A stretch of DNA of 64,000 nt from an uncultured Lachnospiraceae bacterium (GCA_964600435.1 CAZRJB010000002.1:36150-100149), one strand, 5' to 3'. Shown: positions 22,304 through 52,400, counted from the stretch's first letter. The notes: generated by a model not told the origin, from the letters alone. A program made the numbers and translations.

Positions 22304-22335
22304 CAAAGAACTTTTTTTTAATAGCACATTATAGC

Positions 22336-22381: not shown

Positions 22382-22421
22382 TAACCATAATTTTTTGTGT
22401 TGTTTAAAACAAAACAAATTT

Positions 22422-22628: not shown

Positions 22629-22689
22629 TTTCGTTCACCCTTTTTATTTTTATTTAACGAATAGAGTTTAACACATACAATTTAGGTTG

Positions 22690-24075: not shown

Positions 24076-24184
24076 AACAATATATATGAAAAAATATATT
24101 AAATTGTTTTGAAATTTTAAAAGTATATGCTAAAATATGTATGCTAAAGTAAATTAGTAATTAAAAAAAGGAAGGTACAAAAAC

Positions 24185-24448: not shown

Positions 24449-24516
24449 TTTTTTAAAATGTTACAAATGCTTTGTTGGCAAAAAAGTTCATTTTAAACAA
24501 TTTTAGGTTTGCAGTT

Positions 24517-24556
24517 AAAAAAAACCAACACCAAAAATTTTGGTGTTGGTTTTTTT
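24517..24556. terminator. bidirectional intrinsic terminator shared by spoVG and the giant-gene pair
   Basis: Palindrome CCAACACCAAAA-A-TTTTGGTGTTGG (24525-24549), flanked by A8 and T7. Confidence 0.85.
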
Positions 24557-24605
24557 GATTAAGAGATTTGATTAAACAACATTATGAACCAGCTGAAGTT
24601 GATGA

Positions 24606-27600
24606 TTATTGTGTAATTGTTATTGGTGTAATTTGCTCAGGTATAACTGTGTCACTGTTTGTTACAACTTTTTTTGTTAGTAAAATCTTTAAGTCGCTCT
24701 CAGTCATACAGATTTTATCCTGCCAGAGCACAATTTCTCTGTTTATCCCGCTTTCATTTGTGTTAACTCCTTTATATGTTTCAAAAAACACTTCAAGGTC
24801 AGAAAGCAATGTTAATTCTATTTTTACATCTGTTTCTAAGGTAAAACCAACCACATTGTTTTTGAATGTTTTTTCATTCCCTGCAACCAAACCGATTTGT
24901 TGAATGTTTTCAAAAGAATAGGTTGGAATGTTTTCGCCAACAGATTCACTTACATAAGAGAAGTACAATTTGTTTGTTTCTGAAACCTCTTCTGCATTGA
25001 TGTAAGTTTTTTCACCAACAAAATTAATTTTTGTTGTTTCTGTGATAGTATTAGTTTCTTTTGTACAACCGAAAATTCCGCCAACATAGTAAGACCCCAT
25101 AAGTGCCAAACCTGTTGATTTGTTGTAATCTATTTTTCCTTGTTCTTTGTAAACTGTGTTTCCTATGCTAACATTTCCAACTTTTACACCTTCAGCATAG
25201 CCAACAATTCCGCCAACATAACGAGCAATGTATGGGTTGTGAACTTTTAGATGCTGGTCTTCTTGCACGCCTAAAATGTGAGCGCCAACAACCGAATAGC
25301 CGTCTAATGAATTTAGTCCGTCAATTTTTGCACCTTTTGCATAGCCAGCAACACCACCAATTGAAACTGGGGTTATTGGATAACAAGTAAATGCATTGTA
25401 GTTTATAATTTTTGAATTTATTGAGAAATTATTAACTTCTCCTTTAATTTCACCTGCAACATAACCTGCAAAGGCATATGCTTCAACCGAATTGTCAAAC
25501 GAGTTCAAATTAAGGTTAAAGTTTGAAACTTTAGCAATTCCACCAATTCCACCAAACATTAAACCTGAAATCATTGCAAATGTTTTTGCATTTTCGCCAA
25601 CACTTGCTTGAGTTATGTTTGCAACACCGCCAACATAGCCAACTAAAGAACCAGAATAAGAAACCTGACCTCCGTTGGAATTAATCTCAGAAAATTGAAT
25701 TAGCCTTAACAATCCTTCCACATTGGTTTTGTTTGTTGTTAAAGCGGTTGAATTGTAATGAGATGCTTTAACCGAAATGTTTGAATAAATTAAACTTAAG
25801 AATGTTTCATCTGTTGTTCTTCCAAAAAGTCCGCCAACAATGTTTTTACCAATAACAACCACATCTTCACCTAAAACGCTTACATTGGCAACACTTGCAT
25901 TTATTGCTGTTCCAGCAATTGCTCCAACATATATGCTGTTTGGCAAATTGATGTAATATGGCTCAAAAATTGTGTTTTTTAAGCAACTTATTTGAGACTC
26001 TTGACTGCCAATTGACGCAAAAAGTCCGGCTGACAAATTTGAAGTTATGGTGTTAACTGAATAACCAGAAATGCTAAAACCATTACCTTCATAATATCCA
26101 ATTAAAGATTTATTGTATAAATTGCTTGAATATTTTTGTTCTTCTATGTAATTTATGCTACAAATTTGCCTATAATATGAATATTCGCCGTTTAACTGAT
26201 TGCAGTATGTTTCAAACTCGTTAACAGAAGAAATTAAATATGGATTGGTTTCGCTTCCTGGAGTTTGTGAACTTGAAGATGTTGTGTAAATATATTTGTC
26301 TGGATTATTCTTGTCAAAGTTTATGTCTAGTTGAGAGAAAGCAATAATGTTTGGAGAAACCAAATGAAGTCTTCTAGCAATATATTCACCATTTAATGCA
26401 TTTTCGCCATCAACTTTTGTGCTGTATGTAAACATGTTAAACGATGTACTTGCTTCTTTTGTTGAATCAAACACATAAAACCAAACCCCTTGGGATTTTT
26501 TATTGTTTGTTACAAATGACTTTAATTTTGAATCTTGCTTGAATTGACCTGTTGAATCACAAACATTAAAGTCTGCAATGGAAAGTGGTTCAATTCCGTC
26601 AATCACTGAAACAATTTTGTTGTCGGTTTCGCTATAGGTGTAGTTTGTTTGCGATGTGTTGTAGTTTATTAAATTATCTTCAATCAAAAAGAAACAATCT
26701 TTAAAAATAACATTTTCTTCAGTTTGTTCATGAGATGCAACAAAACCATAGTTTAAGGTGTCTTGTTGTTTTAGTTTAGACAACGAGAACACTCTTGTTA
26801 TTGTTCCGGATGTTGCTTTTGCAACAAAACCACTGCTTTCGTTTGTTGACATAATTGGAATGTTTGAATAGCAATCCATAATGTCACCAGAATTTTCATA
26901 AACAAAACCTGCAACTTTTGTTGCTGTGTATATAATTTTTGATGCTTTTGAATCGCTAGCAGCATAATCCGCATAAATTCTTTTTGAAGCTGAATTCATT
27001 AAACCTTCCACATAACACATTGCAATTGAGCCTGTGTTTCTACAAACAAAACCTGCAGTTGTAATGTTTTCGTTTGTGGTTGAAGTTGTGTTGTGAATTC
27101 GTGAATTTTTAATATAAGAACTTGCAACATGCCCAACATTGTTTGCAACAACGCCCGCAAGAGAAGCACCACTTGCTGTTAAGTTGCACTCAACTTGACA
27201 ATTGGTTATGTCGCCATAGTTGTTTGCACAAAGCCCAGCAAAGAACGAATTTTCCATAACAACAATTGTGCTTAAAATGTCAACAGTTACAACGTTGGTT
27301 GATTTTATTGCGCAGTTGGTTATTATGCCGTTGTTTTCCGCAACCAAAAGTGCAATGTTTGCACCATTTGAACTTGTGTTGTTGTCCAAAACAATGTTCA
27401 AGTTGCCTAAAATTTCAATTGTAACATTTTTGATTATGTTTCCAGTTTTGTTTGTTTTAAACAAAGCAAAGTCCGAACTAGAATCCAAAGCAAAATTAAT
27501 TGTTCCTGAAGAAATTTTAATTTTGTAACCATTTCCGTCAAACATTTTTGGAGAAACGGTTAACATTTGCAATTGAGATGGTGATATTGTTATGTCTGCA

Positions 27601-30600
27601 ACTTGTCTATAGTATTCGTCGTCTTTCATTTCCAACATGTCGTTATAGTTATAAATTGGAGTTGCGTTGTCGCTTGTTGTTGACAAATATGAATTAACTT
27701 CAAATTGATAACTTGTTAAAATGTCTGTTTCGGCAGGCTCCGAAATTGTTGGCACGCCTTCAATTGCATCAAGTTTATATTTAATAACAAAAGAGAAATT
27801 GCATGGAGATTGAACAAGTTTTGTTGTTATTGTTTGCCTGTTTAAAATAAATTCGTCATATGATAAATTTGTTGTGTTTGTGATTTGAATTTCGTTTGTG
27901 TTTTTATCTATAAGGAATAATTGAGCATTTGTTTTAAAACTCTCTAAGAATTGATTTTGACTTGGAGTGTTTATGTTTGCACATTCAAACTGAATTTTAT
28001 CTGCAATAACGTTTAAAACATTTGTGCTTTCTAACAATCTTAAATTTATTGTGTTATTTTCACCAAACATATTGTCAGCAACCAAAAATTTATAAATGTG
28101 CAATTTGGTTGTTTTTTTAATGCTTTCTGAAGAATCTTTTTTGCCATAAGATGTTATGATCACTTCTTTATATGCATTGCTTTCATAATTAATATTGTTT
28201 GAAATTTTTAAATAATAACTTCCACCAGCATAAACAACATTTGCAATGCCTGGGTTGTCACTTTCAAAAACAGCTTCATCAGAAGTGTAACCAACAATTG
28301 TTGTGTCTAAAAGATAGGTCATTCCTTCGGCAACATTATATGTTTTGTAATCAGCAAGTTCTTCAACAACCTTTTTGTTGTAAATTTCAAAAGAAACTTG
28401 ATTTGTAAGTTTAGAAATTAAGTTTGTTGTTTCAACCCAAACTGGTTCTGATACATTTTTGTTGTAAAAACTAAAAGTTATTGGAATAATTGTTCCATCG
28501 GCAACAGTTTTTGGGATTTTATAAACCAAACCAATAAGCAAACTATCATCAATTTCTTTAATGGAATTTTTAAATATTCTAATTGTTGAACCGCCAGTGA
28601 TTGATGTGTAAACAGAATCACTAGACACTGTGCCTTTTTTGTTGGCTGAATCGTATTGAATATATCCCAAATAGCCACCTTCTGCTTGAAGTTGCATGGT
28701 GACATCAACGTAGTCAAATTGGCTATATTTTGTGTTTACATATGCATTTATAGTGTTCAATTCTGCTGTTGATGCTTGATTGCCTGAGTAAAGCATTTCT
28801 TTTAAGTCAAATGTGTTTACTCCGTTTGATGATGTTATCATTTCTGTATTGTTTGAAGAATCAAAGTTGTTTATCAAAACTGAAGAGATGGTTTCTGGGG
28901 TTATTGTTATGTAAACGGTTATGCTTTGATTTGTTTTGTGTGATGTTAAAACCAATTTAATGGTTTTTCCAACCAAATAATTATAGGTTTCTGTGTCAAA
29001 ACTGCCTTCGCCCAACATTCTTAAAGAAAAATCAATTCTTTTTGTTAAGTTTTGTAAATCAATGACATCACCCCATTTTAACGTGAACAATGTTTTTTCT
29101 TCTTCTGTTTCAAAAGTACCTGAACCTTTTATACCAATTTTTTGTGAATTATTTTTTAAATTGAAATATTGATAATCAATTATTGTGTTTCCGTTTGAAT
29201 CTTTTGTTTCTTCTCCAACACCCAGTTGTGCAGAAAAGAAATCAGAATCATCAAAAGTGTTGTAAGTTAAGAAAAATTCGATTGTGTCGGTTGGTTCTGC
29301 GGACAAATGAGATTTGTTTGTTTTTACATTTTCAATTCCCATTGTTGCTTCAACTGTATAACCATTTAATTCGTAAGTGTATGAAGAGTTAATTGTTTTT
29401 TGTTTTGCAAAAACTAAAAGTTTTTTGTTGTTGTCACCTACAACCATATCCTCAGAATTATCAGTTTTCTTTGTTTCACAATAATATGTATAACCATCGA
29501 GTTTAAAAATTGTGTAAAAACTTATTTCGTCAGTAGTTATTTCCGCTTTTCTTGTTACAAAAGCAGTTGTGCCTTGAACAGAAATTAATAAATCTGTTAT
29601 ATTTCCATTAACTTCAAAAGAAATTTCGTTGTTTTGTGCCAAGGTTATTGGTGTGTTTTTGTAGTTATAGAAACTTGAAGCTGCCTTGAAATATACAAAC
29701 GTTGTTTGATTGTTGACCAATGTGATTTTGCTCATTGATTCTGTTTTTTCTTTGTTTTTGTAAGCAGTGATTGTGTCGTAGTAATTTGTTATGTTTAACT
29801 CTGCTGTTGTTTGGTTTGTGTAGTTTAATGCGCTAGAAATTTTTATGTTTAAGGCACCAACACCCAAAATGCAAATGTTTTTGCCATAATATTCAAGCCT
29901 TGCAACCGAAGGATTTTTAATTTCCAAATCTATATCTCTGCAAGTTATGTTAAGATATTTTAAGAGAGAAATTGTGTCTGTTAGGTTGGAAATTTTTTGT
30001 TGGTCGACACTATTGCTTGCTTGCATATATGCGGCAATGACCATTTTTATGTTGTTTGGCAATGAGTCTTCTGAGCCTTCAGTGAATTTGCTATAATAAT
30101 ATATATTGGTTGAATCTGCAAAAACAACATCGCCATAATAGTAATCTTTGGAGTTGCCATCATCGCCGCTATAATCATATTCGATTGAAGTATTACTATT
30201 TGCAGCGCTTAAACCAGAATGAATATTTCTTTTAAAATATGTTTCAGCGGTGATGCCTGCAGCAATAGAACTTGGTGCAGTAACAAGAACCTTGTTTGAA
30301 TCATAGGCACCATAATAAACAATAAACGAAGCGTTTATGCCGGTTCTTTCACCGTTGTCAACTGCTTGAATTTTGTTGTTTGAATAAGTTGTACCACTTG
30401 AAGCTGCAACAAATCCACTTAAAATTGTGCCTGAGCCTCTAACAAAAATTCTTGAAGTGTTGTTTTTAATTTCTCCACCACTTGAAGTCGCAACAAAGCC
30501 GGCAACATTGGTTGCGGATAATGTTTTTTTGGTATTATCTGTGTTGGTTTTTATTATTCTTCCATCAATTTCGCCGGTCACTTTTAAGCCAGAAATTGTG

Positions 30601-33600
30601 CCGCCAACATTAGAGCCAACAATTCCGCCAAAATTGGTTGCATTTGACAAAGCAAAAATGCTTGCATGAATTCCATAAAGCCCAATTGTGATTAAATCTT
30701 GTGATAATGTGTTTTGAATTGTTCCAGTATTATAGCCAACAATTCCGCCAAAATTTGATGTCTGCGAACCACTGAACTCAACCGAAAGCGTTGTTGTTTT
30801 TGTGTTGCAAACCATTAATGTGTAATTTTTACAATTGTCATCAATTTGGATTGTTCCTATGTTTGTGCCTGCAACCAAACCAAAATTTACATTGATTGAG
30901 TCATTTTGGGTGTTCACAACAACTGTGTTTTGTTCATTTAATTCAACAAACACATTTGAAATTGTTCCGTTGTTTGTTCCACACAAAAGCCCAATGTTTG
31001 TTTCTGAATTTACATTGTATTCACTTGAAAACAACCCACTTATGCTCAAGTTGTAAACTTTTGCATCATTTTCAATTGTTTGAAACAAACCTTTGTTAAC
31101 TTTGAAATTGGTTATTCTTCCATATTGGTTAATGTTTTTAAAGTCTTTATGGTCTGAATATAAAAATGTTCCACGAATTGAACCTGTTAAAATTCCAAGG
31201 TTAACTAGTTCATTTTTGCAATCTATTTCGGTATCTACATAGTAGTGTTTGTCGGGCGACAAGGTTTTTAAGTCTTGCAAAGAAGAAATTTTTAAAGCGG
31301 TTTGTTCAGACAAGCCGTCAGCACAAACAAAGTTTAATTCTAGGTGATAGTAATAATTTCCGTTGGAATCTGTTGGAGAATTTGTTTTCATAACAGAAAT
31401 TGGGAAAATTAAAACTTTGCCCGAACCAGCACTGTTAAACTTAAAGGTTATTTTGTTATTGTCGGTTTCTGCGATTTCTGCAATTAAACAATTTGAATCT
31501 TTTGTGTCAATATATACAAAAACTTCTTTAAAGTTTGCATTTTCGGGATAAACTTGAACATTTATTGTTTTTTCTGCGTTTACTGCATCCAAATATATAT
31601 ATTCTTCTGGACTAGAAAGCCAAATGCTTTCAACATTAATATATTTTTCAACAACCAAAGTCACGTCCGATTTAAAGGTTTCGTTTGTGTTGGAATCTTT
31701 AATTTCAACCGAAATGTTTATCGAATCGGCATTGCTTAAACCAAGGTAGTTAAACTCAAATTTTCCAATGTAGCCTTTGTCATTTATTGTAGCAACTTCA
31801 TTATTTAGGCTATTAAAGGTTAAAGTTCCAATTGATGTTCCATTGTTGTTTTTAACCGAACCATCTTGTTTAATTGTAAAAGTTTCGTTATCATAAACAA
31901 ATTCAATGTCAGCAAGATTAATTGGATGATTTGTGGTGCCTTCTGAACTCATGTTAACATTTAAATATAAATAAGTTGATGCAAGGTTAACATTTTTATA
32001 AGACAAATCTCTTTTGTTGTATATGCTTGCTTTTTTTAACAAATCGTTCTGATCAACTTGTTCATTTTTGCTGCTGGCATAAAGCGAAGCGGACTTTATG
32101 TAATTTATGCATTTTAAGCGGACTGTTATGTTTTCTATTTCTGGTTCTTTCAATTGAAACAAAAGTGTGCCGTTGTGGTCACGACTGATTTTGTTTAACG
32201 TTATGGCAACTGTTAATGTTTTTGTTGTGTTTTCTTCTGTAAAATTTTTTGTTGTTATTGTTCCGTTTTCAGAAACTTCAAAATTATCGTAGTTTTCAAG
32301 CGAATAAGAATAAGTGAAAGAATTTTGATTGTAGTCTTTAAATGTTGTTGTTGGTTTTACGGCAAGATTAACTTTTGAGCCTATTCCTTTTATTGTTATG
32401 GTGTTTAAATTGCCGCCATCATCATAACCAAAGTCTGAAACATTATTGTTGACTTGGTCGGCAAAATCAAGTTTGAGGCCACTCTCGTTAATCTCTCTAA
32501 AAATTATCACTTTTAATGTTGTTTGAAGCCCGTTTGCTGTTGTAAATTCAAAGGTTTGTTCGCCAACACTTTTTGGAGTGATTGTTATTTGTGTAGACAA
32601 GCTGCTTGTTTGTTCAATTGTGCATATGTTTTGTTTAGACGATGAATAAATTGACATTTTGCCAGGAACTGCATCTTTTGATTCGTTTTGACACACCAAA
32701 CCATTGAATGTATATTCTTTTGTTTCTTCTTCTAGTGGTAAATATATTATTCCATTTGTAAAGCTTGTATTAACATAAAAACTTGTTGCACCGGCAAACA
32801 CATTAATGTTTATTTCTCTAGAACAAATCTTTTCATGAGTGCTTAGGTCGGCAGTTTTATCACCTTTGTAGCAAACAACTTTTATGTAATAGTTTGTGGT
32901 TGCAGAAATTGCAGAAATTGTTATTGCATTTTTCAACTCGCCTAAGTCAAAAACCGTATTGTTGTCATCAGGCTCTAACCCACCAAGTTTAACAGTAAAG
33001 GATTTTTTAATTTCTGAATAATTTACTGATGTAGGGTCTTGGGTTGTGCTCCCAGTTTCAGGTTTTTTCCAAAACTCTAATTTGTAAGAATAATTTTCCA
33101 CAACCGCTTTTTGTGGCATGATTCCAAACTTTAAACTTTTGGAAGTTGCATTTCCGGTTGTATATAATTCAATTTCGGTAAGATTTGCTTGATTGTTGAC
33201 TGTTATGTTGTTAGGTTCGCAAATTGCACTAACCTCAATTGTTACATCGACTTTGTTTTCTTCAAAATCGTTTTGATACACTTCAAATTTTAGTTCTGAG
33301 TCTGTTAAAGTAACATCTGAGGCAGACAAAATAAATTCGGAATTTTTGTTGATTATGATTGGATTTGTGCAAACATCAACTCCATCAAGAGTAATGTTTT
33401 TTGATGCGGAAATTTTTATGGAATATTTATCTCCAAACAAAAAGTCAACCTTTAGTTTCTTTTTGTAACCTGAATCTTTTGTTAAAACAAGTTCAACAGG
33501 TTGGTTTTTGCCCTCTCCTGCTTCAATTAATGGAGTAAAATCATTGCCAAAACTATCAACGTTGTCTGTGCTTTGGTTTGCATATGAAATGTTTAACCCT

Positions 33601-34262
33601 CCTAAATCTATTTCATCAGCAATTTTAACCACCAAATTTGTGGTAATGTTTGAATTATGCATGCTTGTGGCTTTTATTGTGATTGTGTCCGCTGTGCAAC
33701 CATTTTCTACCATTAAAACATTGGTTTCTTTGTTGAAAGTTACACCAGTTATGCCTTGAGAATTTTCGTCCAATTCAAACGTTAAACCTGTTAGTGTTGC
33801 ATTTTCGGGGGTGAATGTAAACATTGAAGAGTCAATTTTTAAAGAACCACCCTTTTTGATGTATATGTTTTGTTTTGCGGAAACAGATTCAATTTCTTTT
33901 GCAACAACAACGGGAACAGAAATGTGATTGCCGATTCCCCTTAAAGTTATTGTTAAAGTTGTGTTTCCTTCAGATATTGGTGCTATCGAGAATTTGTATT
34001 CTCCACCACCTAAGTTTTCTATTGATTTGTCAACATATGCGGCTTTTTGCTCTGCAAAATAAAAGTCAAATTCCGCATTAAAATCAAAATAGTTATTAAT
34101 TACAATTGTGTAATCAACTTTTTGGTCGGTTGTTAACATTTCAATTTTGTCTGCGTTTTTTAAAGACAGCGAAAGAGAACCATAGTCCTGCGAACAGCCG
34201 GACAACATTGCTCCAGTTAAAATTATTAATAATAATGTGACTATGCTTAATGTTTTTTTCAT
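24606..34262 (-). CDS. giant surface lipoprotein (about 3218 aa) with Ig-like regions and three GLUG-like repeat blocks
   Basis: Uninterrupted 9.7-kb ORF. Start at M15 of the track ORF, with a GGAGAG SD. MKKTLSIVTLLLIILTGAMLSGC is a lipoprotein signal with lipobox LSGC. More than 20 motifs by eye of the type NFGGIVGYNTGTIQN / VAGFVYENSGDIMDCYS. Confidence 0.85.
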   Translation of the reverse strand: MKKTLSIVTLLLIILTGAMLSGCSQDYGSLSLSLKNADKIEMLTTDQKVDYTIVINNYFDFNAEFDFYFAEQKAAYVDKSIENLGGGEYKFSIAPISEGNTTLTITLRGIGNHISVPVVVAKEIESVSAKQNIYIKKGGSLKIDSSMFTFTPENATLTGLTFELDENSQGITGVTFNKETNVLMVENGCTADTITIKATSMHNSNITTNLVVKIADEIDLGGLNISYANQSTDNVDSFGNDFTPLIEAGEGKNQPVELVLTKDSGYKKKLKVDFLFGDKYSIKISASKNITLDGVDVCTNPIIINKNSEFILSASDVTLTDSELKFEVYQNDFEENKVDVTIEVSAICEPNNITVNNQANLTEIELYTTGNATSKSLKFGIMPQKAVVENYSYKLEFWKKPETGSTTQDPTSVNYSEIKKSFTVKLGGLEPDDNNTVFDLGELKNAITISAISATTNYYIKVVCYKGDKTADLSTHEKICSREININVFAGATSFYVNTSFTNGIIYLPLEEETKEYTFNGLVCQNESKDAVPGKMSIYSSSKQNICTIEQTSSLSTQITITPKSVGEQTFEFTTANGLQTTLKVIIFREINESGLKLDFADQVNNNVSDFGYDDGGNLNTITIKGIGSKVNLAVKPTTTFKDYNQNSFTYSYSLENYDNFEVSENGTITTKNFTEENTTKTLTVAITLNKISRDHNGTLLFQLKEPEIENITVRLKCINYIKSASLYASSKNEQVDQNDLLKKASIYNKRDLSYKNVNLASTYLYLNVNMSSEGTTNHPINLADIEFVYDNETFTIKQDGSVKNNNGTSIGTLTFNSLNNEVATINDKGYIGKFEFNYLGLSNADSINISVEIKDSNTNETFKSDVTLVVEKYINVESIWLSSPEEYIYLDAVNAEKTINVQVYPENANFKEVFVYIDTKDSNCLIAEIAETDNNKITFKFNSAGSGKVLIFPISVMKTNSPTDSNGNYYYHLELNFVCADGLSEQTALKISSLQDLKTLSPDKHYYVDTEIDCKNELVNLGILTGSIRGTFLYSDHKDFKNINQYGRITNFKVNKGLFQTIENDAKVYNLSISGLFSSEYNVNSETNIGLLCGTNNGTISNVFVELNEQNTVVVNTQNDSINVNFGLVAGTNIGTIQIDDNCKNYTLMVCNTKTTTLSVEFSGSQTSNFGGIVGYNTGTIQNTLSQDLITIGLYGIHASIFALSNATNFGGIVGSNVGGTISGLKVTGEIDGRIIKTNTDNTKKTLSATNVAGFVATSSGGEIKNNTSRIFVRGSGTILSGFVAASSGTTYSNNKIQAVDNGERTGINASFIVYYGAYDSNKVLVTAPSSIAAGITAETYFKRNIHSGLSAANSNTSIEYDYSGDDGNSKDYYYGDVVFADSTNIYYYSKFTEGSEDSLPNNIKMVIAAYMQASNSVDQQKISNLTDTISLLKYLNITCRDIDLEIKNPSVARLEYYGKNICILGVGALNIKISSALNYTNQTTAELNITNYYDTITAYKNKEKTESMSKITLVNNQTTFVYFKAASSFYNYKNTPITLAQNNEISFEVNGNITDLLISVQGTTAFVTRKAEITTDEISFYTIFKLDGYTYYCETKKTDNSEDMVVGDNNKKLLVFAKQKTINSSYTYELNGYTVEATMGIENVKTNKSHLSAEPTDTIEFFLTYNTFDDSDFFSAQLGVGEETKDSNGNTIIDYQYFNLKNNSQKIGIKGSGTFETEEEKTLFTLKWGDVIDLQNLTKRIDFSLRMLGEGSFDTETYNYLVGKTIKLVLTSHKTNQSITVYITITPETISSVLINNFDSSNNTEMITSSNGVNTFDLKEMLYSGNQASTAELNTINAYVNTKYSQFDYVDVTMQLQAEGGYLGYIQYDSANKKGTVSSDSVYTSITGGSTIRIFKNSIKEIDDSLLIGLVYKIPKTVADGTIIPITFSFYNKNVSEPVWVETTNLISKLTNQVSFEIYNKKVVEELADYKTYNVAEGMTYLLDTTIVGYTSDEAVFESDNPGIANVVYAGGSYYLKISNNINYESNAYKEVIITSYGKKDSSESIKKTTKLHIYKFLVADNMFGENNTINLRLLESTNVLNVIADKIQFECANINTPSQNQFLESFKTNAQLFLIDKNTNEIQITNTTNLSYDEFILNRQTITTKLVQSPCNFSFVIKYKLDAIEGVPTISEPAETDILTSYQFEVNSYLSTTSDNATPIYNYNDMLEMKDDEYYRQVADITISPSQLQMLTVSPKMFDGNGYKIKISSGTINFALDSSSDFALFKTNKTGNIIKNVTIEILGNLNIVLDNNTSSNGANIALLVAENNGIITNCAIKSTNVVTVDILSTIVVMENSFFAGLCANNYGDITNCQVECNLTASGASLAGVVANNVGHVASSYIKNSRIHNTTSTTNENITTAGFVCRNTGSIAMCYVEGLMNSASKRIYADYAASDSKASKIIYTATKVAGFVYENSGDIMDCYSNIPIMSTNESSGFVAKATSGTITRVFSLSKLKQQDTLNYGFVASHEQTEENVIFKDCFFLIEDNLINYNTSQTNYTYSETDNKIVSVIDGIEPLSIADFNVCDSTGQFKQDSKLKSFVTNNKKSQGVWFYVFDSTKEASTSFNMFTYSTKVDGENALNGEYIARRLHLVSPNIIAFSQLDINFDKNNPDKYIYTTSSSSQTPGSETNPYLISSVNEFETYCNQLNGEYSYYRQICSINYIEEQKYSSNLYNKSLIGYYEGNGFSISGYSVNTITSNLSAGLFASIGSQESQISCLKNTIFEPYYINLPNSIYVGAIAGTAINASVANVSVLGEDVVVIGKNIVGGLFGRTTDETFLSLIYSNISVKASHYNSTALTTNKTNVEGLLRLIQFSEINSNGGQVSYSGSLVGYVGGVANITQASVGENAKTFAMISGLMFGGIGGIAKVSNFNLNLNSFDNSVEAYAFAGYVAGEIKGEVNNFSINSKIINYNAFTCYPITPVSIGGVAGYAKGAKIDGLNSLDGYSVVGAHILGVQEDQHLKVHNPYIARYVGGIVGYAEGVKVGNVSIGNTVYKEQGKIDYNKSTGLALMGSYYVGGIFGCTKETNTITETTKINFVGEKTYINAEEVSETNKLYFSYVSESVGENIPTYSFENIQQIGLVAGNEKTFKNNVVGFTLETDVKIELTLLSDLEVFFETYKGVNTNESGINREIVLWQDKICMTESDLKILLTKKVVTNSDTVIPEQITPITITQ

Positions 34263-34402
34263 AGTTCTCTCTCCGTTCTTTATTTTTTTTGTTTTGTTTT
34301 TCATTTTTCTTGTTTTTTTGTTATTTTAACATTTTTTCAACCAAAACCATAACTTTTTTAAACATATTTATTTTGTTTTTATAATTATGTGTTGCCATTA
34401 TG

Positions 34403-43400: not shown

Positions 43401-46400
43401 ACAAAGCCTGCAACGGCTTCAACTTTTGTTTGATCAGGAAGTATAATTTGAAGAGGTGAACTAGATGTATGTGATACATTATTATTCAAATATGCTTGGA
43501 ATTGAGTGTTGCCTGTGTTGAACACATTAAGAGTTTCTTGAACACTGCAAACGTACACAATGCCATTGTTTGTGTTAACAAAACCTGCCGCATTTGTGAA
43601 TGCAGAGCTTGCATTATTTAAGTTTATATTAGATGGCATTGGTGTTGAACCAGATTCATCAATATACACTCTTGCAACAACACCCGAAACAGCACTTGTT
43701 TCAGAAATTGTGTTAAATGGAGTGTGGTTTGACCAAATTTCTGCCCCAGCAGAGAACAAAATTGCATTATTTAAAGAAATTTGATAATCCAATGGGCTTA
43801 TATCGCCCCACGTTGCAGGGGCATCACCAAGGTTTATGTAAAGTTTTCTTGTTTTTGTGCTGCCATATTCAACAACATGTTTATCAGTACTTTCTTGTTT
43901 ATAGAATACCTCATCTGTTGAACCTGACTCCGGTTTTTGGTCATAAGCACTATCATCATCCAATTCCATAGCATTAAGTTTTGAACCTTGAGGAGCATTG
44001 TCTTGCAACAATATAATAATTTCAGGACGTGAATCTGTTCCACCGGTTAAATCTTGAGTAAATGTTCCAAAATCACAATTTGTTGTGATAGATGTTTGTG
44101 AACTTACAGACAATGTTACGGCTGAGCAATATTGGGCATTGCCAGTTAGAGCTACACCAGTTGCACACTTTATTACCGCATCCAAGCTGTCGCTTTGTGT
44201 GGTTGCAAACACTGTTGTTAAGGCAATAACTTTTGTATTGCCAGCACTTTTTTCAAATGTGATGCTTGTGTTAGCATTGTCTTCTTTTGCAGCAAAACCA
44301 ACAATGCCGGCAAAATTTTGATTAACTGATTGTGTTCCAATGTTTTTAGCAGGCAAGTTAAGTTCTCCGGATGCCACACAATTTGAAATTGTGAGCGAAT
44401 TGCCACTGCTAACAAACCCTACAATTCCACCAACATTTACATTTGAAAATTCATATTTGTTTTGTTTGCCAGTTTCGCTGACTTTAAAGCCAATTGTTCC
44501 TTCATAAATTGTGTTGCAAATTGAACCGCTGCCAGTGGTACCAGCAGTGCCATATGCACCACCAATGTTTAGATAAGTCACTGTGATTGGGGTATTAGAA
44601 GCACCTTGTTCAACACCTCCAACATCAATCGTTAGGTCACCATAATAAGCAACATAGCCTGGATTGCTGGCGTCGGTGGTTGATACGTTTTCTACTCCGC
44701 CTGCAACACCACCAATATAGTTGTTTGTTGATGCAAAAGTGTCAATTGTTAATGGTTTAAATACATAGTTTAGATTATTATCTTTATAAGCACCAAACAC
44801 AATCAAGCCGTTTATTGTTAACGTTTTAGCATGTCCGCATGCATTGCCTAAATACAATGTTTTATAGTTTTCTAAGTTTGAAACTGAAATGTTAAAAGCA
44901 TAATAAACAGGGTTTTCTTTGTCTTTGCCATTTAAAGTGAATGTGCCTTTTACATCACCAACCAAACCACCAATATAAATTGTTTTATCTGCACTGTCAC
45001 CAGAAGTTCCTTCAACTTCCAAAGTAACATTATTGGAAATGTTTAATGAACTTATTGTTATATTGCCAGTTACAGAACCAGCTACCAAACCTATTGATGT
45101 TTCAATTCCAGAATTAGGTCCCACGGTTAAGGTTCCACCATTAATATTTACATTTGAAATGGTTGCACTAGCGCCTGAACCAAACAACAAACCATAGATT
45201 ACGGCACTATTAGAAGTGTTTGGTGTTGAGACTGTGACTATAACATTGCTATTAATTAATATGTCTTGAATTGTAACCTCAGAACCGGTGTGTGCACCAA
45301 ACAACAAGCCTGCATTGTTTGCTTGTGATGGAGTAAGTTGGCAGTCAGAATCAAAAGAGATTCCTTCAAATTTGCCGCCCTGGGTTGTTGCGGTTAAAAG
45401 TGCTGAGTTACCATTGTATACATAGCTAGTTCTGCAGTTTATTAAAGAAATTTTTTGGTATGTAACATTATTTGAAGAAATAACCAAAGGTGATGCGCAA
45501 CCCTGCAAAATTAAATCTGAAATTGTGCAATTTTGTGCTTGTGTGAACAATGGGCTGTGAAGGTTTTTAAAACCATCTTTGTTTGTTGCTCCATAAATGT
45601 CGCCCCTAATTACACCCAAAGTTGTGTACCAATTTGAGCAGTCAATTAAAATTTCATCATCGTTTAGCTTTGATGTGTCACCTTTAACAAGGAAAATTGC
45701 ATCATCTTCATTTCCGTGAAGAATAAATTTATAGAAATCATTTACAGACTCAATAATGTAAGTTGAAGTTGGATATATATAGTTTATATGTGGGAAAGTT
45801 TCGTTAAAATCACGTGACCAGTTTTTATCTTTATACCAGCCATTTTCTTTAAACATTAAGTCTATTGTTGCGCCGTCGTCACTAATTATGCCAGGGTAAG
45901 AATAGTAAGAGGTTATGCCTGCAGCTGAATTGCTTGATGTGCTTTTATCAACAGCAACATCACCTTCACCCTCAAATTGCACTTTTTTAATTGTGTAGAT
46001 TGATGAAGATGTTGTGTTTGAACCTGTTGATTCCTCAAAATAAGCTCCATCGCCAAGAATTCCACCAATGTTCTTATAGCTTGGGTCTTTAAATTTTTCA
46101 TATGAATTATGACCCCAATAGTTTAGAGCATTAACCATTATTAATTGTGGATGACCCAGTAAGTTGTCTTTATTGACAGCCACTTTATCTCCATTTATTT
46201 CACATTTGCCAAAAATTCCACCAATTTTTGCATTGGCAGCATTTGAATACACGTCACCAATTGCATAAATTTCATTTAAAATTAACCAGTCATCTGTTAA
46301 TTCATCAGAATCCTGATTTATTTTATATGAATAGCCAACAATACCTCCGGCATTTTTTGCGTATTGATTTATAACATTAATTTTTGAATAACCAATGCTA

Positions 46401-49400
46401 AGTTTTCCGCTATAAGCACCGCCAACCAATCCACCAATTGCAAATGGTTTATAGCCAACATTAGATTCAAAAATGTCTTCCAAGCCGCGGTCAATTGTTG
46501 AATCGCCACCAGCAACTTTATAATATTGTTGCATATTTTTTTCAATTAAGTCTTGCCATTCAGATTCGTGCTCTGCCTTGATTTGATACAAATAGCCACT
46601 GCTGAAACCAACAACACCGCCAGCATAGCAGTTGTAAGCATTTATTTTTGCAATTTTATCTTTTTTGATTGTTAAAGCCAAATCACGAGCAATAACTTGA
46701 GAGCCAACGTGACCAATAACACCACCGGCAGTCATTCCTTGAATAACCAATCCGCCAGAAACGTGAATGTTGATGATGTTTGCAGATTGTTGGTCTTTTG
46801 CAATTTCAGATTCTTTAACTTCTTCAAGATTTCTGTAGAAATCTACAACACCAAAAGCACCACCAGCAATTGACAACTCTGTGTATGAGGATTCTGGTTT
46901 TGTTTTGTCATATATGTTAACCTGTTCACTTTCACAAGAAATGCTTGTATGGTTGGTTGATGTAACAGAAATGTTGTCAACAATAATGTTTGAAACGTTG
47001 GATGTGCCAATAACTCTACCAAAAACACCGCCAGTAACGTTTGCACCAATAATTTTGGTTGTGTTTTTATCTGTGTCAGCCAAACTGTTAGCCTTGATGC
47101 TAATATTAAACGCGCTAGAATTTTTAAGAGTTCCTGCAATTGTTCCAACAAATGTTGTGTGGTCGGCACTAACACCACCCTCAGAAAGTTCAATGTTTAA
47201 ATTTGAAATGCTTGCACCACTTTCTAGAGCCCTAAACAAGCCAAACTCGTCACTTGTTGCGCTTGAGTTTGAAATTGCAAGGTTTTTAATTGTTAAGCCA
47301 TTGCCTTCAAGCGAACCACCCATTTTTGAAATTGATTTTTGTTCACCAGTTAAAACATAGCCAGTTGAAAGCAAATTAACTTTGTATTCTGTTTCTTGTT
47401 CAGATTTTGGAACGAGAGAAAGCATGTCTAAATTATTTACAATTCTATATGAACCGTAAATCTTTTTAAACTCTGTGCTATAGTTATTTTTTATGTCTGT
47501 AGATTTTGATGCACCAAACACTGAGTTAAATTCTTCTGCATCTCTTATGATGATTGGGTTGTTTATTGTGCCAAGTTCATAACCAACGCAATATGGGAAA
47601 AGATATTCAACATCTGTGTTTTGCCCAGTTGTGTTTGCTTTTTTATATCTAATTGATTGAGCAATGTTGTTTGTGTTTACAAGAACAGGTCCGTTTTTTG
47701 CAATTGCCCATGTTCCAGATGCATTTATGCTTGAATCTATAAAACTAAAGCCATAGAATGTTCTGCTTTTGTCAACTTCGGAAACGGCTGTTATTGAAGT
47801 GTTTATAACACTTTCTATTGAAATTTGGTCTGAATCATTTTTAACGTAGTAATAACAAGTGTCAATAACACCACTGTTGTTGTAACCACCAATGTCTTTT
47901 ATTCCTGCAAAATTCATTTGAGTTATATTGTTGTTTATTATTGTGGATGCTGAATATGCACGTTTGATTGTTGCATCTTCACCATTTTCATAAACAAAAC
48001 CTGCACCCAAACGCCCAACTTGCGAACGTGAATTTGTTAAACGCAAGTTGCTATAGCAGTCAGTTATTGTTCCTTGATTTGAGTAAACAAAGCCAGACAT
48101 TATTCCAAGTGCTTCAATTCCGCCAATGTCAGATTGAATGCTGTTTTCGTCTTTAAAGCCACCTTGAGCATAAGACATAACAATTGTTCCAGTGTTTTCT
48201 CCAACAAATCCGGTTGTGGTTTTTGTTTCTTGTTTGTTATATATGTTTTGAATGTTTATGTTTTTAACAAACGAACTTGAAATCACCCCTGAGTTGTTTT
48301 GAACAAAACCTGAAATTGTTCCACTTGCCTTAATTTCAAATTGTTCAGCAGTTATTATTTTTGTTTCTGCAATTCCAATATCAGAAACGCTTTCAACAAT
48401 TGTTTTGCTTGAATTGCCAACTCTTGAGTTTGTTATTGAACCATAATTGTTTAAAACTAAGCCTGCAACATTTGCTTCAACGTTGTCTTCAATTTTTAAG
48501 CCATGTGAGTTTGTTGTGCTAGCCAAATTTGGGTCAAGATACGACATAACATCACAGTTGTAAACCACACCATTGTTGTTGATTGCCAAGCCTGCAACGT
48601 TTATGGTTGTTGCGCCTTGAACAGAAAGTGTTGGCAAATAATATATGTTAACTGTTAAGTTTTTGATTGTTGTTTCTGATGAAATTTGCTTAAACAATGC
48701 ATAGTCAGTTAAAGTTGAATCTTGAGCAAATTCTATAATGTGAATTGCATGGTTGTTTCCATCTAACGACTTAATTTTGTTTGTGTTTTCAATTGTTTTA
48801 AAGTTATACAAGAACAAATCTGCATTTAAAATGTAGTCTTGAGATTGTTCTTCGTTTGAAATGTTTAAAAAGCCAGCAGGGTCAGCAATTTCTTTTGGCA
48901 AATCTTCTGTTGTGTATTGATTGTTTGTGATTGTAAAATCATAAACATATACACCAGTAGAACCATTTGGCATTGTGTAAGGAATTCTTAGGCGCATGTT
49001 AACTTTGCCAGTGTATGCCCCACCTTGAACATATAGTTTTTCGTTGTTAATAAAGAATTTAACATAGTTATCATAAAACTCGTGTTGGTTAATTGAGCCG
49101 TCATTTTCGTTTGTGAGTTTTATTTCTGAGTTTCCGTTAACAAAATACAAATATGATGCCAAATTGTGTGCTGATGTGAAATCGCTTTTTGTAGCACCAA
49201 ATATAAAGCCAGTTCTAACGTTTTCAAAGTAGTAAGTAGCGTTTTCGTTTGTAGCATTAAATTCTTTTTTGAAGTTGGCTGATGCTTTTACGTTTTCAGA
49301 CAAAGACAACATAAATTCTGACGCATTAAAGTTTGTAACATTAAAGTTTTTATCTAGCGCTCTATACACAACAATGTCGTCTTGTTCAATTTTTGCATCA

Positions 49401-52400
49401 ATCACATAAACAAACATTTCGGAATGCACTTTAATTTCGTTTCCTTGTGAAATTTTTGTGCTTTCTACAACAAGTTTTAATTGTGTGCTATCATTTAGGA
49501 ATGAATAACCATCTTTGAATCTAAGAGTTATGTTATATACCGAATAACCAGCAGCATTATTGTTTAAGCGTTCTATTATGCATTCTATATTACCTACAGG
49601 TTTTCCATCTAATTCAGATTTTTCATTTCCATCATCATCTATTGTTGCTATTTTTATTGATGTGTTAATTTGGTCGCCAGCAACAAGTGCGGTAATGTTA
49701 CTAATTTCAGTTTTTGCCTCTGCATAAACATATACATGAGTTTCTCCGTTTAAAGAGATTTCTGGAGCTTCTGGTGCTTTTACGTATAAAATGAACACTG
49801 ATTGAACATTTTCAATTTTTTTGCCGTTGTAATATGCATTAACAGTTAAAGTGAAAACAGTGTCTGCATCAAAGTTTATGCTTGCATAAATTTTAACAAA
49901 ATATGCGCCAGTTTGATTATTAAAAATTCTTATACCATTTTTGCCATTTATTGATTCAAATCCTTCTGTTGCATTTTTATATGAAGAATTATTATTTTCT
50001 TGAAGTCTGAAAGCAAGAGTTGTGAGTGTGCTAGATTCTGCAACAATTTCAATATAGTCATAAGTTGCATATGTTGGGAACATGTCAACAACAAAAATGC
50101 CTGATTGAGTTGGCAACAAAACAGATGCCGGTTCTTCGAATCTAGAAACACTTACGCCTTCTGTTGTTGCATTTGTTACTTTATATAATGTTGTGTTTAT
50201 GTTTGAAACTGCTTGTGGCAAAATTGTTAGGGTTAAAGTTGTTGAAACATCGTATTTTGAGTTTGAGTTTGATGCTCCTACAACAATTGTGTAGGTTTTG
50301 TCTACCATGTTCAATTTTGCTTTGTTGTCTTCTTTTAGTTCAACAAAAACTTCAAATTTATTTGTTTCAGTTTCACTTTGTTGTACTTTAATATTAAAGA
50401 ATTGAGTAACATCAAGGTTTTGAGCATTTAAAACTTTAATGTCTGCTTCAGTTACTTTGTCGCCTTCTGCATCTGTTGTTAAAGTTGCAACAAAAGAGAA
50501 TGTGTCTTTTGGTTCAATTTCTCCATGGCTAACGTTTGCTGAAATCTCGGTTGTTCCAGTTTTTCTGGTTATTGTGAAATTAGTATCTGTTGATGACAAG
50601 CATAAATAACCATTAATAAGAGTATTAAAATCAGCATGGTTGCTTGTTAATTCAACATAAACTCCAACATCGTCGCTTTTAACAAAGTTTGTGTCCATGT
50701 TTATTGTGTGAACACCTAGTTTTGTGTTTGTTATGTAATTTTTTATGTCTAAAGTTGTGCCATCTATGCCTGTTTGCTCAAAAACAAACCCAAACACAAC
50801 ATCAAATGTGTTTTCTACAAGTTCAATAGAAACACCAGAAACACTAATGCTGTGATTCAATTTTGTAATTATTTCTGCTGTTTGCCCAACAACAATTTGA
50901 ATGTTTGTTGAAGAAGAAATTGTATTGCCGTTGTGAGTGATTGTAAAATTTGAGAAATAGTGCATTGACACCAAGTCAATTTTGACACTTGTTGTGAAAT
51001 CATATTGGCTAGAAACTTCTAAAACAAATTCCCCAACACCATATAGAGTGATTGAGTTAGCACTAACACTAACAAAATTGCATGCAGAACCATCTTTGTT
51101 TAATGCACGAACTTTTAAATCATCGATTTTAATTGAGGTTGAAGTTGAAGAAAGCAAATCACTAAGTGCTATTGTGTTTTTACCATTTAACAATGATTGT
51201 TTTGAAGAGTCTTTTGCTTGATAATAGAAAACAATGCCTTTGGTTTCATGGCCATAAGATTTTTCTGTTGTTTCTTTAACGGAAATTGTGCCAAGAGCTT
51301 TGTCTTCGTAATTTTCTGTTGTGATGTCTGTGCTGTTTTTGTCAGAAAAATCTTTGGAGCCTCCGCCAATCACTCCGTTGATGTAAATTGTTTGATTTGT
51401 TGTTGTATCTGTTGTTTCAACAACTTTGTTTGAATCGTTTATATTAAATTTTGCAATTATTATTTTGCAATCTGAAATTGTGCCTGTGGTTGTTAAGTTT
51501 GTTCCCGCAATGGCATTTGCTGTTTTGTTGGTTAAGTCAGAAACATCAATTGAGCCGGCAAAACAACAGTTTGAAATTGTGCCTATGTTTGTTCCAACCA
51601 ACCCGCCTGGGTTTTCATTTTTTGCGATTAAAACACTTGGAACATATTGGTTATTATATATATAAGTTGTAACATTAACATTTTTAATTGTTCCATTGTT
51701 TGTTTCTGCAACAAAACCAATGTTGACAGTGTTATCTGTTTGTGTAACAGTTCCACATATGTTCAAATTTTCAATGTGTGCATCTGCACCTAATGTTTTA
51801 AACAAAGATGTTGATGTTAATTGAATTGTTGCACATGCTGATGATGTGTCGTCTGAATATCTTTTTCCGTATAATCCACCATAAAATGTGCTAAATAAGA
51901 AATTGGTTTCATTATGTATATATGTTGTTGGAATGGTTAAAACATAGTGCTTGCTTGAATCTTTTATTTCGCTCAAACTTGTTATTTCAAATGCGGTTGC
52001 ATAAGATTCTCCGTCTGCAACAACAATTGGAACTAGCACTTTTTTTGCTGTTGAATTGGTATCTTTTGGAGTTATTTCAATAATTCCTGTGCCACCAGTG
52101 TTGCCCAAAACTGTGATTGTTCCGTTAGGAGTTATTGACAAAATATCTTTAGATGTGTTGTTTGTTGGAGAAAACTCAATTTCTAATTCTTTTTCGAGAG
52201 CTTCTGCTGGAGTGATTTCAAAATTAAGTTTAAATTGTTTAGCATCATTTTTAGACAAATCTATATAAATTTGTTTATATGTTTTTGTCGATTCGGTTAT
52301 GCCTTGCAAATCCAAATTTGTTATAGAAACATCACCAACAATTTTTGTTTCAATTATATTGACAATTACAACATATTTTACAAACGATTTTAAATTTGTA

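Follow-up and report, generated by a model that had tools for sequence, protein, structure and literature searches.

Two adjacent minus-strand genes, A and B, lie in the window analysed here, by which we mean the whole stretch of 64,000 nucleotides (Table 1; positions are counted from its first letter). Taking about 110 Da for each residue, their products would weigh roughly 0.75 and 0.35 MDa, and A is the longest among the 150 family representatives listed out of 261. The paralogy of the two proteins is apparent in BLASTP, which aligns A159-1140 with B160-1152 and A2018-2800 with B2199-2991. The true start of B is probably Met15, at position 34262; the form of the protein in the database has 3218 aa. 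The gap between the genes contains neither a minus-strand promoter-like site nor a terminator-like site, and A and B are probably transcribed as one unit.

Table 1. Features of the locus, with positions in the window
Feature	Position	Strand	Description and basis
Gene A	34403-54994	minus	Uninterrupted ORF, 6863 aa; giant putative lipoprotein with seven predicted beta-helix modules
Gene B	24606-34304	minus	3232 aa, three predicted modules; paralogue of the first ~3000 aa of A
Promoter-like site TTGACA-16-TATATT	55074-55101	minus	~80 nt upstream of A; 11/12 consensus, consensus match only
Putative signal peptide and lipobox of A (L-S-A-C, Cys26)	54917-54994	minus	Read from sequence
Putative signal peptide and lipobox of B (L-S-G-C, Cys37)	34194-34262	minus	Read from sequence
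A N-terminal ~970 aa, presumed Ig-like array	52010-54916	minus	BLASTP homology to B N-terminus
AM1 (A aa 995-1230), GLUG-type predicted beta-helix	51305-52012	minus	hhalign 97.6-97.9% to BM2/BM1; Pfam Glug 20.8 bits
A spacer (aa 1230-2018), Ig-like array by homology to B spacer	48941-51307	minus	hhalign 95.8%, 664 columns, to alignment A4
AM2 (A aa 2018-2470)	47585-48943	minus	hhalign 100% to BM2; six strict motifs
AM3 (A aa 2468-3085), core-motif type, adjoins AM2	45740-47593	minus	hhalign 100% to BM3, 97.3% to BM2
AM4 (A aa 3083-3650), core-motif type, adjoins AM3	44045-45748	minus	hhalign 91.8% to BM1, 91.7% to BM3
AM5 (A aa 3690-4040)	42875-43927	minus	hhalign 97.2% to BM2; M2 HMM match 1.5e-12
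AM6 (A aa 4105-4520)	41435-42682	minus	hhalign 97.7% to BM2; Pfam Glug 29.2 bits
A aa 4520-5245, no assigned fold	39260-41437	minus	Searches of Pfam, NCBIfam, hhalign
AM7 (A aa 5245-5580)	38255-39262	minus	hhalign 92.2% to BM3, 86.5% to BM1; Pfam Glug 21.3 bits, excised
A C-terminal ~1280 aa (aa 5580-6863), no assigned fold	34406-38257	minus	T-rich quasi-repeats, Cys cluster
B N-terminal ~960 aa, presumed Ig-like array	31314-34193	minus	Homologous to A N-terminus
BM1 (B aa 997-1345), most canonical GLUG repeats	30270-31316	minus	Pfam Glug 30.2 + 23.9 bits; hhalign 99.3% to BM2
B spacer (aa 1371-2213), predicted string of Ig-like beta-sandwich domains	27666-30194	minus	AF2 pLDDT 82.5, all-beta
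BM2 (B aa 2199-2682), modelled right-handed beta-helix with N-terminal cap and C-terminal subdomain	26259-27710	minus	AF2, Foldseek
BM3 (B aa 2680-3150), core-motif type, adjoins BM2	24855-26267	minus	hhalign 96-98% to BM2/BM1, 100% to AM3

The signal peptide is the sole hydrophobic segment in each protein, and both conform to the lipobox pattern [LVI][ASTVI][GAS]C, a motif of which 72 of the 84 full-length relatives have a similar version. A and B are thus predicted to be bacterial lipoproteins, and lipidation of the lipobox cysteine would hold the N-terminus in the cytoplasmic membrane. The statement in the preliminary description that no protease domain accompanies the repeats holds for both proteins, since they contain no HExxH motif and match no peptidase family, M26 included, in Pfam or NCBIfam. 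Neither an LPxT[GAN] sortase motif nor, by Pfam, a G5 domain is present in either of them, and no known adhesive domain family was detected.

The repeats themselves are real and much more frequent than expected by chance. A loose expression for the full motif, [AG][GF]h x1-3 [NS] x1-2 G x [IVL], finds 20 matches in A and 10 in B when overlaps are counted (23 distinct sites), as compared to 0.7 and 0.3 in residue shuffles, and the shorter core G[GF]hhG has 21 matches in A and 7 in B, where shuffled sequences have 0.6 and 0.2. Per 1000 aa, this core is found 16 and 23 times within the blocks but 3 and 1 times elsewhere in A and B, a 5- to 20-fold difference in density. How many copies there are depends on what is counted. 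The first estimate of about 60 (some 40 in A and more than 20 in B) is reached when degenerate copies carrying only the core h-G-G/F-h-h are added, which gives ~66 in total (A 44, B 22); a motif profile recovers 29 copies at a strict threshold (conditional E <= 1e-3), and with a lax threshold the number within the modules is 37, such that the estimate does not stand for well-formed motifs. No tandem repetition is visible at the DNA level in the locus, and hence the repeats are old and diverged.

The proposed kinship with the GLUG motif is supported. On excised blocks of AM1, BM1, AM7 and AM6, the Pfam model PF07581 scores 20.8, 30.2, 21.3, 26.1, 29.2 and 23.9 bits (gathering cut-off 20.5 bits), with the BM2 block falling just under the cut-off at 20.2 bits, and it is the sole Pfam family that matches the blocks. 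On the whole proteins it fails: no family is reported at E <= 1 for the halves of A or at E <= 0.01 for B, and GLUG does not match whole B even at E <= 10. Among 21 orthologous M2 modules, three match GLUG at E <= 0.01. With excised scores near the cut-off, no match on whole proteins and few among orthologues, the repeats are best described as divergent GLUG relatives at the limit of detection, and the link rests on a short motif at the Pfam threshold together with the predicted fold.

Profile-profile comparison by hhalign shows that the repeats belong to ten mutually homologous modules (86-100% probability, control regions <5%), and all ten blocks that had been delimited by eye lie within these independently delimited units. 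The similar entry segments noticed ahead of most blocks correspond to an N-terminal cap, recognisable in nine of the ten modules, which consists of a short strand and a short helix followed by Y-h-L-x-x-D-I. It is kept across the family: Y34 does not vary at all in a 21-sequence alignment, and P16, I19 and D39 hardly do. The alternation of blocks and Ig-like spacers that had been described applies only in places, because M2, M3 and M4 abut directly, and M4, M5 and M6 are joined by short or low-complexity linkers.

A right-handed beta-helix had been suggested as the fold of the blocks, and an AlphaFold2 model of BM2 (pLDDT 85.3, pTM 0.88), with its short strands in triplets, agrees with this. 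Every Foldseek match to the model is a right-handed beta-helix, and a search of a viral structure library gave the same picture. The highest-probability neighbours are the IgA1 proteases of S. pneumoniae and G. haemolysans (6xjb, 6xja, 7uvl, 7jgj and 7uvk) and BACOVA_03286 (3n6z), at probabilities of 0.85-1.00 (6xjb 1.00, 3n6z 0.97), though with weak E-values of 0.01-0.25. In the IgA1 protease, the N-terminal domain forms a non-catalytic beta-helix at residues 781-1070 (PMC7695701). IgA1/Zmp (M26) metalloproteases (6xjb, 6xja, 7uvk) and BACOVA_03286 also have the short repeat PF07581 in common with the blocks of A and B. A search of PDB sequences with the module profile found no IgA1 protease, and the modules show no similarity at profile level to those PDB chains; A and B lack the M26 domain, HExxH and LPXTG, as well as G5 by Pfam; and whereas those proteases carry one beta-helix per protein, the two proteins here are predicted to hold ten, in longer modules (about 240-620 aa) with a conserved cap and a C-terminal subdomain.

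For the spacers, the Ig-like assignment made at the outset is upheld. The model of the B spacer, a stretch of 840 aa between BM1 and BM2, consists of tandem beta-sandwiches and has 502 PDB matches at E <= 1e-3 (best 5e-15) among arrays of Ig-like and related beta-sandwich domains, the top ones being NUP210, protocadherins and the arrays of the S-layer proteins Sap, EA1 and SbsB (E 5e-15 to 1e-9); the A spacer is homologous to it. Pfam and NCBIfam recognise no Ig-like domain in either protein, and for the N-terminal regions there are just faint hints, to Ig_NUP210 in A (E 0.036) and to aBig_2 in B (E 0.017). Residues 4520-5245 of A match no Pfam or NCBIfam family and, by hhalign, neither the modules nor the spacer. 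The C-terminal half of A is poorly conserved.

A and B belong to an unannotated family that is conserved in uncultured gut Clostridia. An exhaustive search retrieved 261 representatives, and every named one is called "hypothetical protein". By length they form two classes, of ~3.2-3.7 k and of ~4.7-6.9 k aa, and the module stands at a fixed position. Ten modules in one locus had been considered unusual, which we would not maintain: three lie in B, several stretches are matched in A-type relatives, and multiple modules per protein look like a conserved trait of the family. The gene order A, B, murC, L9, MBL, HtrA, with an M23 peptidase gene upstream, is kept in related MAGs, and the A-B pair flanked by M23 peptidase and MurC-like genes is conserved among MAGs of uncultured Clostridia/Christensenellales. 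Both the murC-like gene and the placement of the related MAGs in Clostridia suggest a wall-bearing Gram-positive organism.

We favor, with moderate confidence, the view that A and B are paralogous giant fibrillar surface proteins, anchored by lipid, that have an adhesive or coat-forming role and are not enzymes, a view built on sequence features and structural models. A Sec-type signal peptide would direct the export of each protein, the lipobox cysteine would receive a lipid, and the N-terminal array of ~1000 aa, presumed to be Ig-like, would form a stalk that crosses the wall and extends past it. The distal part is predicted to consist of rigid right-handed beta-helix modules, each starting with the conserved strand-helix cap and a D-G-N-G turn, whose coils would be formed by divergent GLUG repeats (consensus x-A/G-G/F-h-h-x-N-x-G-x-I-x-x-C/S-Y), and some of which would have strings of Ig-like beta-sandwiches between them. 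The conserved residues of the modules appear to occupy structural positions (an Asn ladder, Gly turns and core aromatics), and this, together with the apparent lack of a catalytic domain, makes a long, non-enzymatic surface fibre most likely. Fibrillar adhesins and other giant repeat surface proteins, for example Ebh/Embp, SiiE and the RTX adhesins, offer a close parallel in architecture, being large secreted proteins with a long Ig-like beta-sandwich stalk and distinct non-stalk modules, as predicted for A and B. They differ in that their anchor is a C-terminal LPXTG or T1SS retention module, whereas that of A and B is the N-terminal lipobox, such that the free tip would be the C-terminus; in that the non-stalk elements here would be serial beta-helices; and in that the Ig-like domains of A and B escape Pfam and NCBIfam and the two proteins form a conserved pair.

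There is a modest chance that adhesion is not the main role and that A and B instead form a clade-specific lipid-anchored coat or sheath replacing an S-layer. In relatives, too, the pair keeps its syntenic place among genes for the envelope (an M23 peptidase, a MurC-like ligase and HtrA), both paralogues are retained side by side, and the Ig-like array is similar to the domains through which Sap and EA1 of B. anthracis and SbsB of G. stearothermophilus assemble. These are likewise Firmicutes envelope proteins, and their beta-sandwich assembly regions match the spacer model at E ~1e-9 to 1e-10. However, this likeness is generic for Ig-like arrays, as protocadherins and NUP210 were matched in the same search. 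Pfam finds no SLH, CWB2 or other wall-binding domain in A or B, which are also 5 to 10 times larger than those S-layer proteins, contain predicted beta-helix modules and would be anchored by lipid. Furthermore, the poor conservation of the C-terminal half of A fits an exposed, diversifying tip, not a lattice.

An enzymatic function has to be weighed as well. Many enzymes that cleave polysaccharides, both lyases and hydrolases, have a beta-helix fold too. The modules share the predicted right-handed parallel beta-helix with pectate-lyase-like enzymes and phage tailspikes, and A and B might be surface-tethered multi-enzyme glycan degraders made of lyases, hydrolases or epimerases of that superfamily. 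Foldseek also lists the fucoidan lyase FdlA, a GH87 alpha-1,3-glucanase, the AlgE4 epimerase, PL6 lyases and phage tailspike depolymerases, and for gut Clostridia glycan foraging is plausible. We nevertheless consider this improbable: the enzymes are matched at probabilities of 0.07-0.54, as opposed to 0.85-1.00 for the non-catalytic beta-helix of the IgA1 proteases; no lyase or hydrolase family in Pfam or NCBIfam matches, even on excised modules; and the columns that never vary in the alignment of 21 module sequences hold N, G, F, Y and W and one D in the DGN turn, without a conserved acidic or basic cluster that would point to catalytic residues. The ~4000 aa without an assigned fold (the N-termini, A 4520-5245 and A 5580-6863) could, however, contain an enzymatic or toxin domain that Pfam and NCBIfam do not cover.

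Finally, it is very improbable that A is a polymorphic toxin or contact-dependent effector, i.e., a beta-helical filament with a variable C-terminal toxin like CdiA/TpsA or Rhs-type proteins, for although A is very large, has beta-helical repeats and ends in a lineage-variable region that has no homologues in the set of 150 representatives, no Rhs/YD repeat, LXG, PT-domain or toxin family was detected, Pfam finds none of the TPS secretion domain, FHA repeats and C-terminal beta-barrel of TpsA/CdiA proteins or autotransporters in A or B, the gene downstream of A is its paralogue B and not a small immunity gene, A aa 6492-6651 form a partly conserved domain that is kept in relatives, and an N-terminal lipid anchor is not a known feature of CdiA/TpsA or Rhs-type systems.

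For the organism, a lipid-anchored surface fibre of this kind would mean adhesion to glycans, particles or other cells, or else a protective coat, with the variable C-terminal half of A as its exposed tip. The A-B pair is probably a vertically inherited core feature of a Christensenellales-like clade of uncultured low-GC gut Clostridia.

The repeat blocks listed in the preliminary description all lie inside two adjacent minus-strand ORFs, here called A and B, and 10/10 of them fall within the ten modules that we delimited independently (AM1 to AM7 in A, BM1 to BM3 in B). The motif itself is far more frequent than expected by chance. A loose regular expression for the full motif gave 20 matches in A and 10 in B (overlaps included; 23 distinct sites), as compared to 0.7 and 0.3 in shuffled sequences, and for the core G[GF]hhG the counts were 21 and 7, where shuffling yielded 0.6 and 0.2; the density of this core inside the blocks is 5 to 20 times that outside. 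The earlier figure of about 60 motifs holds if degenerate copies are counted, since the total including core-only copies is approximately 66 (44 in A, 22 in B); a profile trained on the motif found 29 confident or 37 lax copies inside the modules. Tandem Repeats Finder (TRF) did not detect DNA-level tandem repeats in either gene, and the repetition therefore is ancient.

Coordinates of the two giant genes, their modules and associated features in the window
Feature	Position	Strand	Remarks
Gene A	34403-54994	minus	ORF, 6863 aa
Gene B	24606-34304	minus	ORF, 3232 aa
AM1	51305-52012	minus	module of A
AM2	47585-48943	minus	module of A
AM3	45740-47593	minus	module of A
AM4	44045-45748	minus	module of A
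AM5	42875-43927	minus	module of A
AM6	41435-42682	minus	module of A
AM7	38255-39262	minus	module of A
BM1	30270-31316	minus	module of B
BM2	26259-27710	minus	module of B
BM3	24855-26267	minus	module of B
AM5-AM6 linker	42749-42847	minus	A aa ~4050-4082
Ig-like array	27666-30194	minus	B, between BM1 and BM2
Presumed Ig-like array	31314-34193	minus	B
Presumed Ig-like array	52010-54916	minus	A
Thr-rich quasi-repeat	36125-37123	minus	A aa 5958-6290
Conserved C-terminal segment	35042-35521	minus	A aa 6492-6651
Cys cluster	34892-34963	minus	A aa 6678-6701
159-aa ORF	46881-47360	plus	within gene A
Gap upstream of A	54995-55690		non-coding, ~700 nt
Gap downstream of B	24076-24605		non-coding, ~530 nt
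Promoter-like site	55101-55074		in gap upstream of A
Conserved flank	19535-24075		compared with L002-L005, L011, L012
Conserved flank	55691-56779		compared with L002-L005, L011, L012
LeuRS	10918-13458		
HisRS	59911-61167		

In order to compare the modules, a family alignment was made for each and the alignments were then aligned profile to profile (hhalign). Each module resembled at least one of BM1, BM2 and BM3 with 86-100% probability over 200-400 columns, while the controls (spacers, N-termini, A residues 4520-5245 and the C-terminus of A) stayed below 5%. AM1, AM2, AM5, AM6, BM1 and BM2 carry the full motif; in AM3, AM4 and BM3 mostly just the GG-h-h-G core is left, and AM7 is intermediate, having kept two strict copies and matching Pfam Glug. 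All ten blocks are, as shown directly or by prediction, homologous GLUG-type beta-helix modules.

With respect to the GLUG assignment, Pfam returned nothing for whole or half A and B, even with permissive E-values. Excised blocks reached 20.8-30.2 bits with Glug (PF07581; cut-off 20.5), the sole family to reach its cut-off, which ties the GLUG-like motif of the preliminary description to this family and attributes the silence of the whole-protein searches to protein length and composition. Among 21 orthologous M2 modules, three matched GLUG at E <= 0.01 (best 1.4e-8) and none matched another family, and NCBIfam had no match in A or B. The modules therefore are related to GLUG but divergent, and lie at the edge of what the model detects. 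Profile searches with a module against PDB sequences did not find relatives, and the link to IgA1 proteases hence rests on motif and fold; the literature on GLUG yielded nothing useful beyond structure papers on the IgA1 protease. A word-indexed protein search retrieved a single fragment (P0001) with BM2 and nothing with BM1 or the C-terminus of A, but this search also missed the query's own protein.

We modelled BM2 (B residues 2199-2680) with AlphaFold2 and a family alignment of 21 sequences. The model (mean pLDDT 85.3, pTM 0.88) is a right-handed beta-helix, as had been anticipated from the repeats, and is made up almost entirely of short strands in triplets. One motif corresponds to one coil, where A-G-F-V forms strand 1, G-x-I strand 2 and C-Y-x strand 3. 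What had been called entry segments cap the modules at their N-terminal side, and in the model they form a short strand and a helix cap. The residues conserved in the family alignment are repeat-structural (Asn ladder, Gly turns, core aromatics, DGN turn). Foldseek searches of the PDB returned right-handed beta-helices only, with weak E-values throughout (>= 0.01). The top probabilities were for the Streptococcus pneumoniae IgA1 protease (6xjb 1.00, 6xja 0.99, 7uvl 0.98, 7jgj 0.94), BACOVA_03286 (3n6z; 0.97, target-normalised TM-score 0.50) and G. haemolysans IgA1P (7uvk; 0.85). A viral structure library gave the same outcome, including a phage 'putative IgA1 protease'. In IgA1P, the beta-helix extends over residues 781-1070 and serves as a gating domain without catalytic function (PMC7695701).

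The spacer between BM1 and BM2 (B residues 1371-2213, 843 aa), modelled with 15 orthologues, is likewise all-beta, with longer strands (pLDDT 82.5, pTM 0.50, the latter as expected for a beads-on-a-string arrangement). It had 502 PDB matches at E <= 1e-3, the best of which are arrays of Ig-like or related beta-sandwich domains, namely NUP210 (5e-15), protocadherins, the S-layer assembly regions of Bacillus anthracis Sap and EA1 and of SbsB, complement MG domains and KIT. A residues 1230-2018 are homologous to this spacer (hhalign 95.8%, 664 columns), while the N-terminal regions, A residues 4520-5245 and the C-terminal region showed no similarity to it. Pfam found nothing meaningful in the 15 orthologous spacers, recognising none of the Ig-like domains, and gave only sub-threshold Ig-like hints (aBig_2, Ig_NUP210, GldM_2nd) in pieces of approximately 400 aa from every non-module region, where NCBIfam had no match. 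Of the alternation of blocks with Ig-like spacers that had been described, the Ig-like nature thus stands for the modelled M1-M2 spacer, but strict alternation does not, because M2, M3 and M4 abut; M4, M5 and M6 are connected by short or low-complexity linkers. The AM5-AM6 linker, a low-complexity stretch of Ser/Thr/Pro/Asp (…PSGASGDGSDPASEPSTSTSTPSS…), probably is a flexible hinge.

As collinear paralogues, A and B align at A159-1140/B160-1152 and at A2018-2800/B2199-2991, with 23-25% identity; the DNA has approximately 32% G+C. Both begin with a lipoprotein-type signal peptide (...FLSAC with Cys26 in A, ...MLSGC with Cys37 in B) and contain no further hydrophobic segment. The database form of B has 3218 aa, and its true start therefore probably is Met15 (34262); TRF found an imperfect A/T-rich repeat of 21 nt that overlaps the first 14 codons of the ORF (MKNKTKKIKNGERT; 34262-34327). 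The ORF on the opposite strand within A very likely is a chance ORF in a giant gene.

The C-terminal part of A has several peculiarities. By direct reading, it contains about four copies of a Thr-rich quasi-repeat of approximately 45 aa (LTAxxxxxTTTLTDSDNxTVxTIVTxNGTTTYYxGSxTSG...), two of which are identical over 23 aa and none of which is recognised by Pfam or NCBIfam. Within the last ~1200 aa, residues 6492-6651 are the sole conserved segment, with 32-35% identity to the A-type genes of two homologous loci (L002 and L004), and may be a distinct tip domain. Near the C-terminus of the otherwise Cys-poor protein, there is a cluster of 8 Cys in 24 residues (CTCTTCTCSEFGCKSGSTCTCTSC), which matches no family and could be a metal-binding site or a disulfide knot.

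Unusually long non-coding gaps flank the pair, and the one upstream of A holds a strong promoter-like site, by consensus match only. Consensus matching found neither promoter-like nor terminator-like minus-strand sites between A and B, which probably are co-transcribed. A terminator-like site downstream of B was not found either. Ordinary chromosomal genes surround the pair. Downstream of it there are genes for a MurC-like Mur ligase, ribosomal protein L9, a metallo-beta-lactamase-fold (MBL) protein and HtrA, and upstream there are an M23 peptidase, a 154-aa ORF, Fe-ADH, polysaccharide deacetylase and HisRS. T-box leaders are common upstream of such aminoacyl-tRNA synthetase genes in Firmicutes; in the 64 kb, no Rfam family reached its gathering score, including upstream of LeuRS and HisRS, and there are no tRNA genes in the window (1-64000).

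When 1.84 billion representatives were searched exhaustively with a profile, 261 family proteins were found at E <= 1e-3, 97 of them at E <= 1e-30. They form two length classes, B-like (~3150-3700 aa) and A-like (~4700-6860 aa), and A is the longest among the 150 matches listed. Full-length members carry the module at a fixed site near residues 2000-2700, A-type members show several matched stretches each, and a lipobox-like motif is present in 72/84 full-length members. Those with a name are entered as 'hypothetical protein', from MAGs of Clostridiales or Christensenellales. Related loci, searched for with five close sequences, belong to MAGs of uncultured Clostridia (among them HGM11346, SIG415, SIG417 and 'Christensenella sp. 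UBA1242'; G+C 28-40%). In L002-L006 a B-type gene comes after the C-terminus of an A-type gene; MurC comes next in L002-L005, then L9, MBL and HtrA in L002-L004, and L011 and L012 have the M23 peptidase upstream of the A-type gene, with the 154-aa ORF in L012. The order kept in related MAGs is 154-aa ORF, M23 peptidase, A, B, MurC-like ligase, L9, MBL-fold protein, HtrA. Identity to the window is 70-85% for L9, MBL and HtrA (L002-L004), 49-66% for MurC (L002-L005) and 49-65% for the B module. Among the modules, conservation is highest in M2 and M3 and poor in M4 to M7, as it is in the C-terminal half of A. The gene pair thus is conserved clade-wide, and the giants reside in a stable, envelope-related core neighbourhood.

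As to function, we consider it probable that A and B are long fibrillar adhesins or coat proteins with an N-terminal lipid anchor. Both would be exported and anchored at the N-terminus, with the N-terminal array as the stalk; the segments formed by the beta-helix modules would be rigid and exposed, and the tip would be the C-terminus of A, which is variable. An S-layer-like structural coat, which would accord with the Sap, EA1 and SbsB matches of the spacer, seems unlikely. Glycan-degrading enzymes, another setting in which beta-helices occur, are less likely still: lyases, glucanases and tailspikes had far lower Foldseek probabilities against the BM2 model. A and B have no recognisable catalytic, sortase or wall-binding domain. 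Neither protein contains HExxH or LPXTG, on which grounds a protease and a sortase-anchored adhesin, respectively, were rejected; with the defining peptidase features tested and absent, A and B are not M26 proteases, in line with the preliminary description, which had seen no protease domain. Toxin delivery is highly improbable and was rejected, as toxin and immunity features are absent.

A fibrillar surface protein is a mechanism of known type, and A and B resemble fibrillar adhesins and giant repeat surface proteins in their mode of action, their modules being related to the GLUG beta-helix found in IgA1/Zmp proteases. They differ from known examples in the N-terminal lipid anchor, the serial beta-helix modules (seven in A), Ig-like domains foreign to domain libraries, the fact that a long and a short paralogue are kept as a conserved pair, and the fixed position among envelope genes. 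A bolder and rather doubtful reading is that A and B constitute an undescribed, clade-defining envelope organelle of Christensenellales-like gut Clostridia, a heterotypic lipid-anchored fibre or coat that replaces the S-layer and governs attachment. If so, the giant fibre or coat, possibly >100 nm long, would consist of GLUG-type beta-helices in series together with new Ig-like domains, and what the cells attach to would be mucus of the host, particles from the diet or partner cells, with ~30 kb of genome devoted to it at a fixed position beside wall-synthesis genes.

The locus is useful for annotating metagenomic dark matter, though unsurprising to a specialist. Its ~10,000 residues are invisible to Pfam and NCBIfam, yet the architecture is clear, with a lipobox, Ig-like arrays and GLUG-type beta-helices in series. 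Together with their orthologues, the ten modules would provide the basis for a domain family, a divergent branch of the GLUG beta-helices, and the spacers for several new Ig-like families, with the three arrays (one modelled, two presumed), which neither library covers here or in 15 orthologues, as candidates; such families would improve the annotation of many metagenomic giant proteins. Proteins of this kind are likely the main interface of these uncultured Clostridia with their environment.
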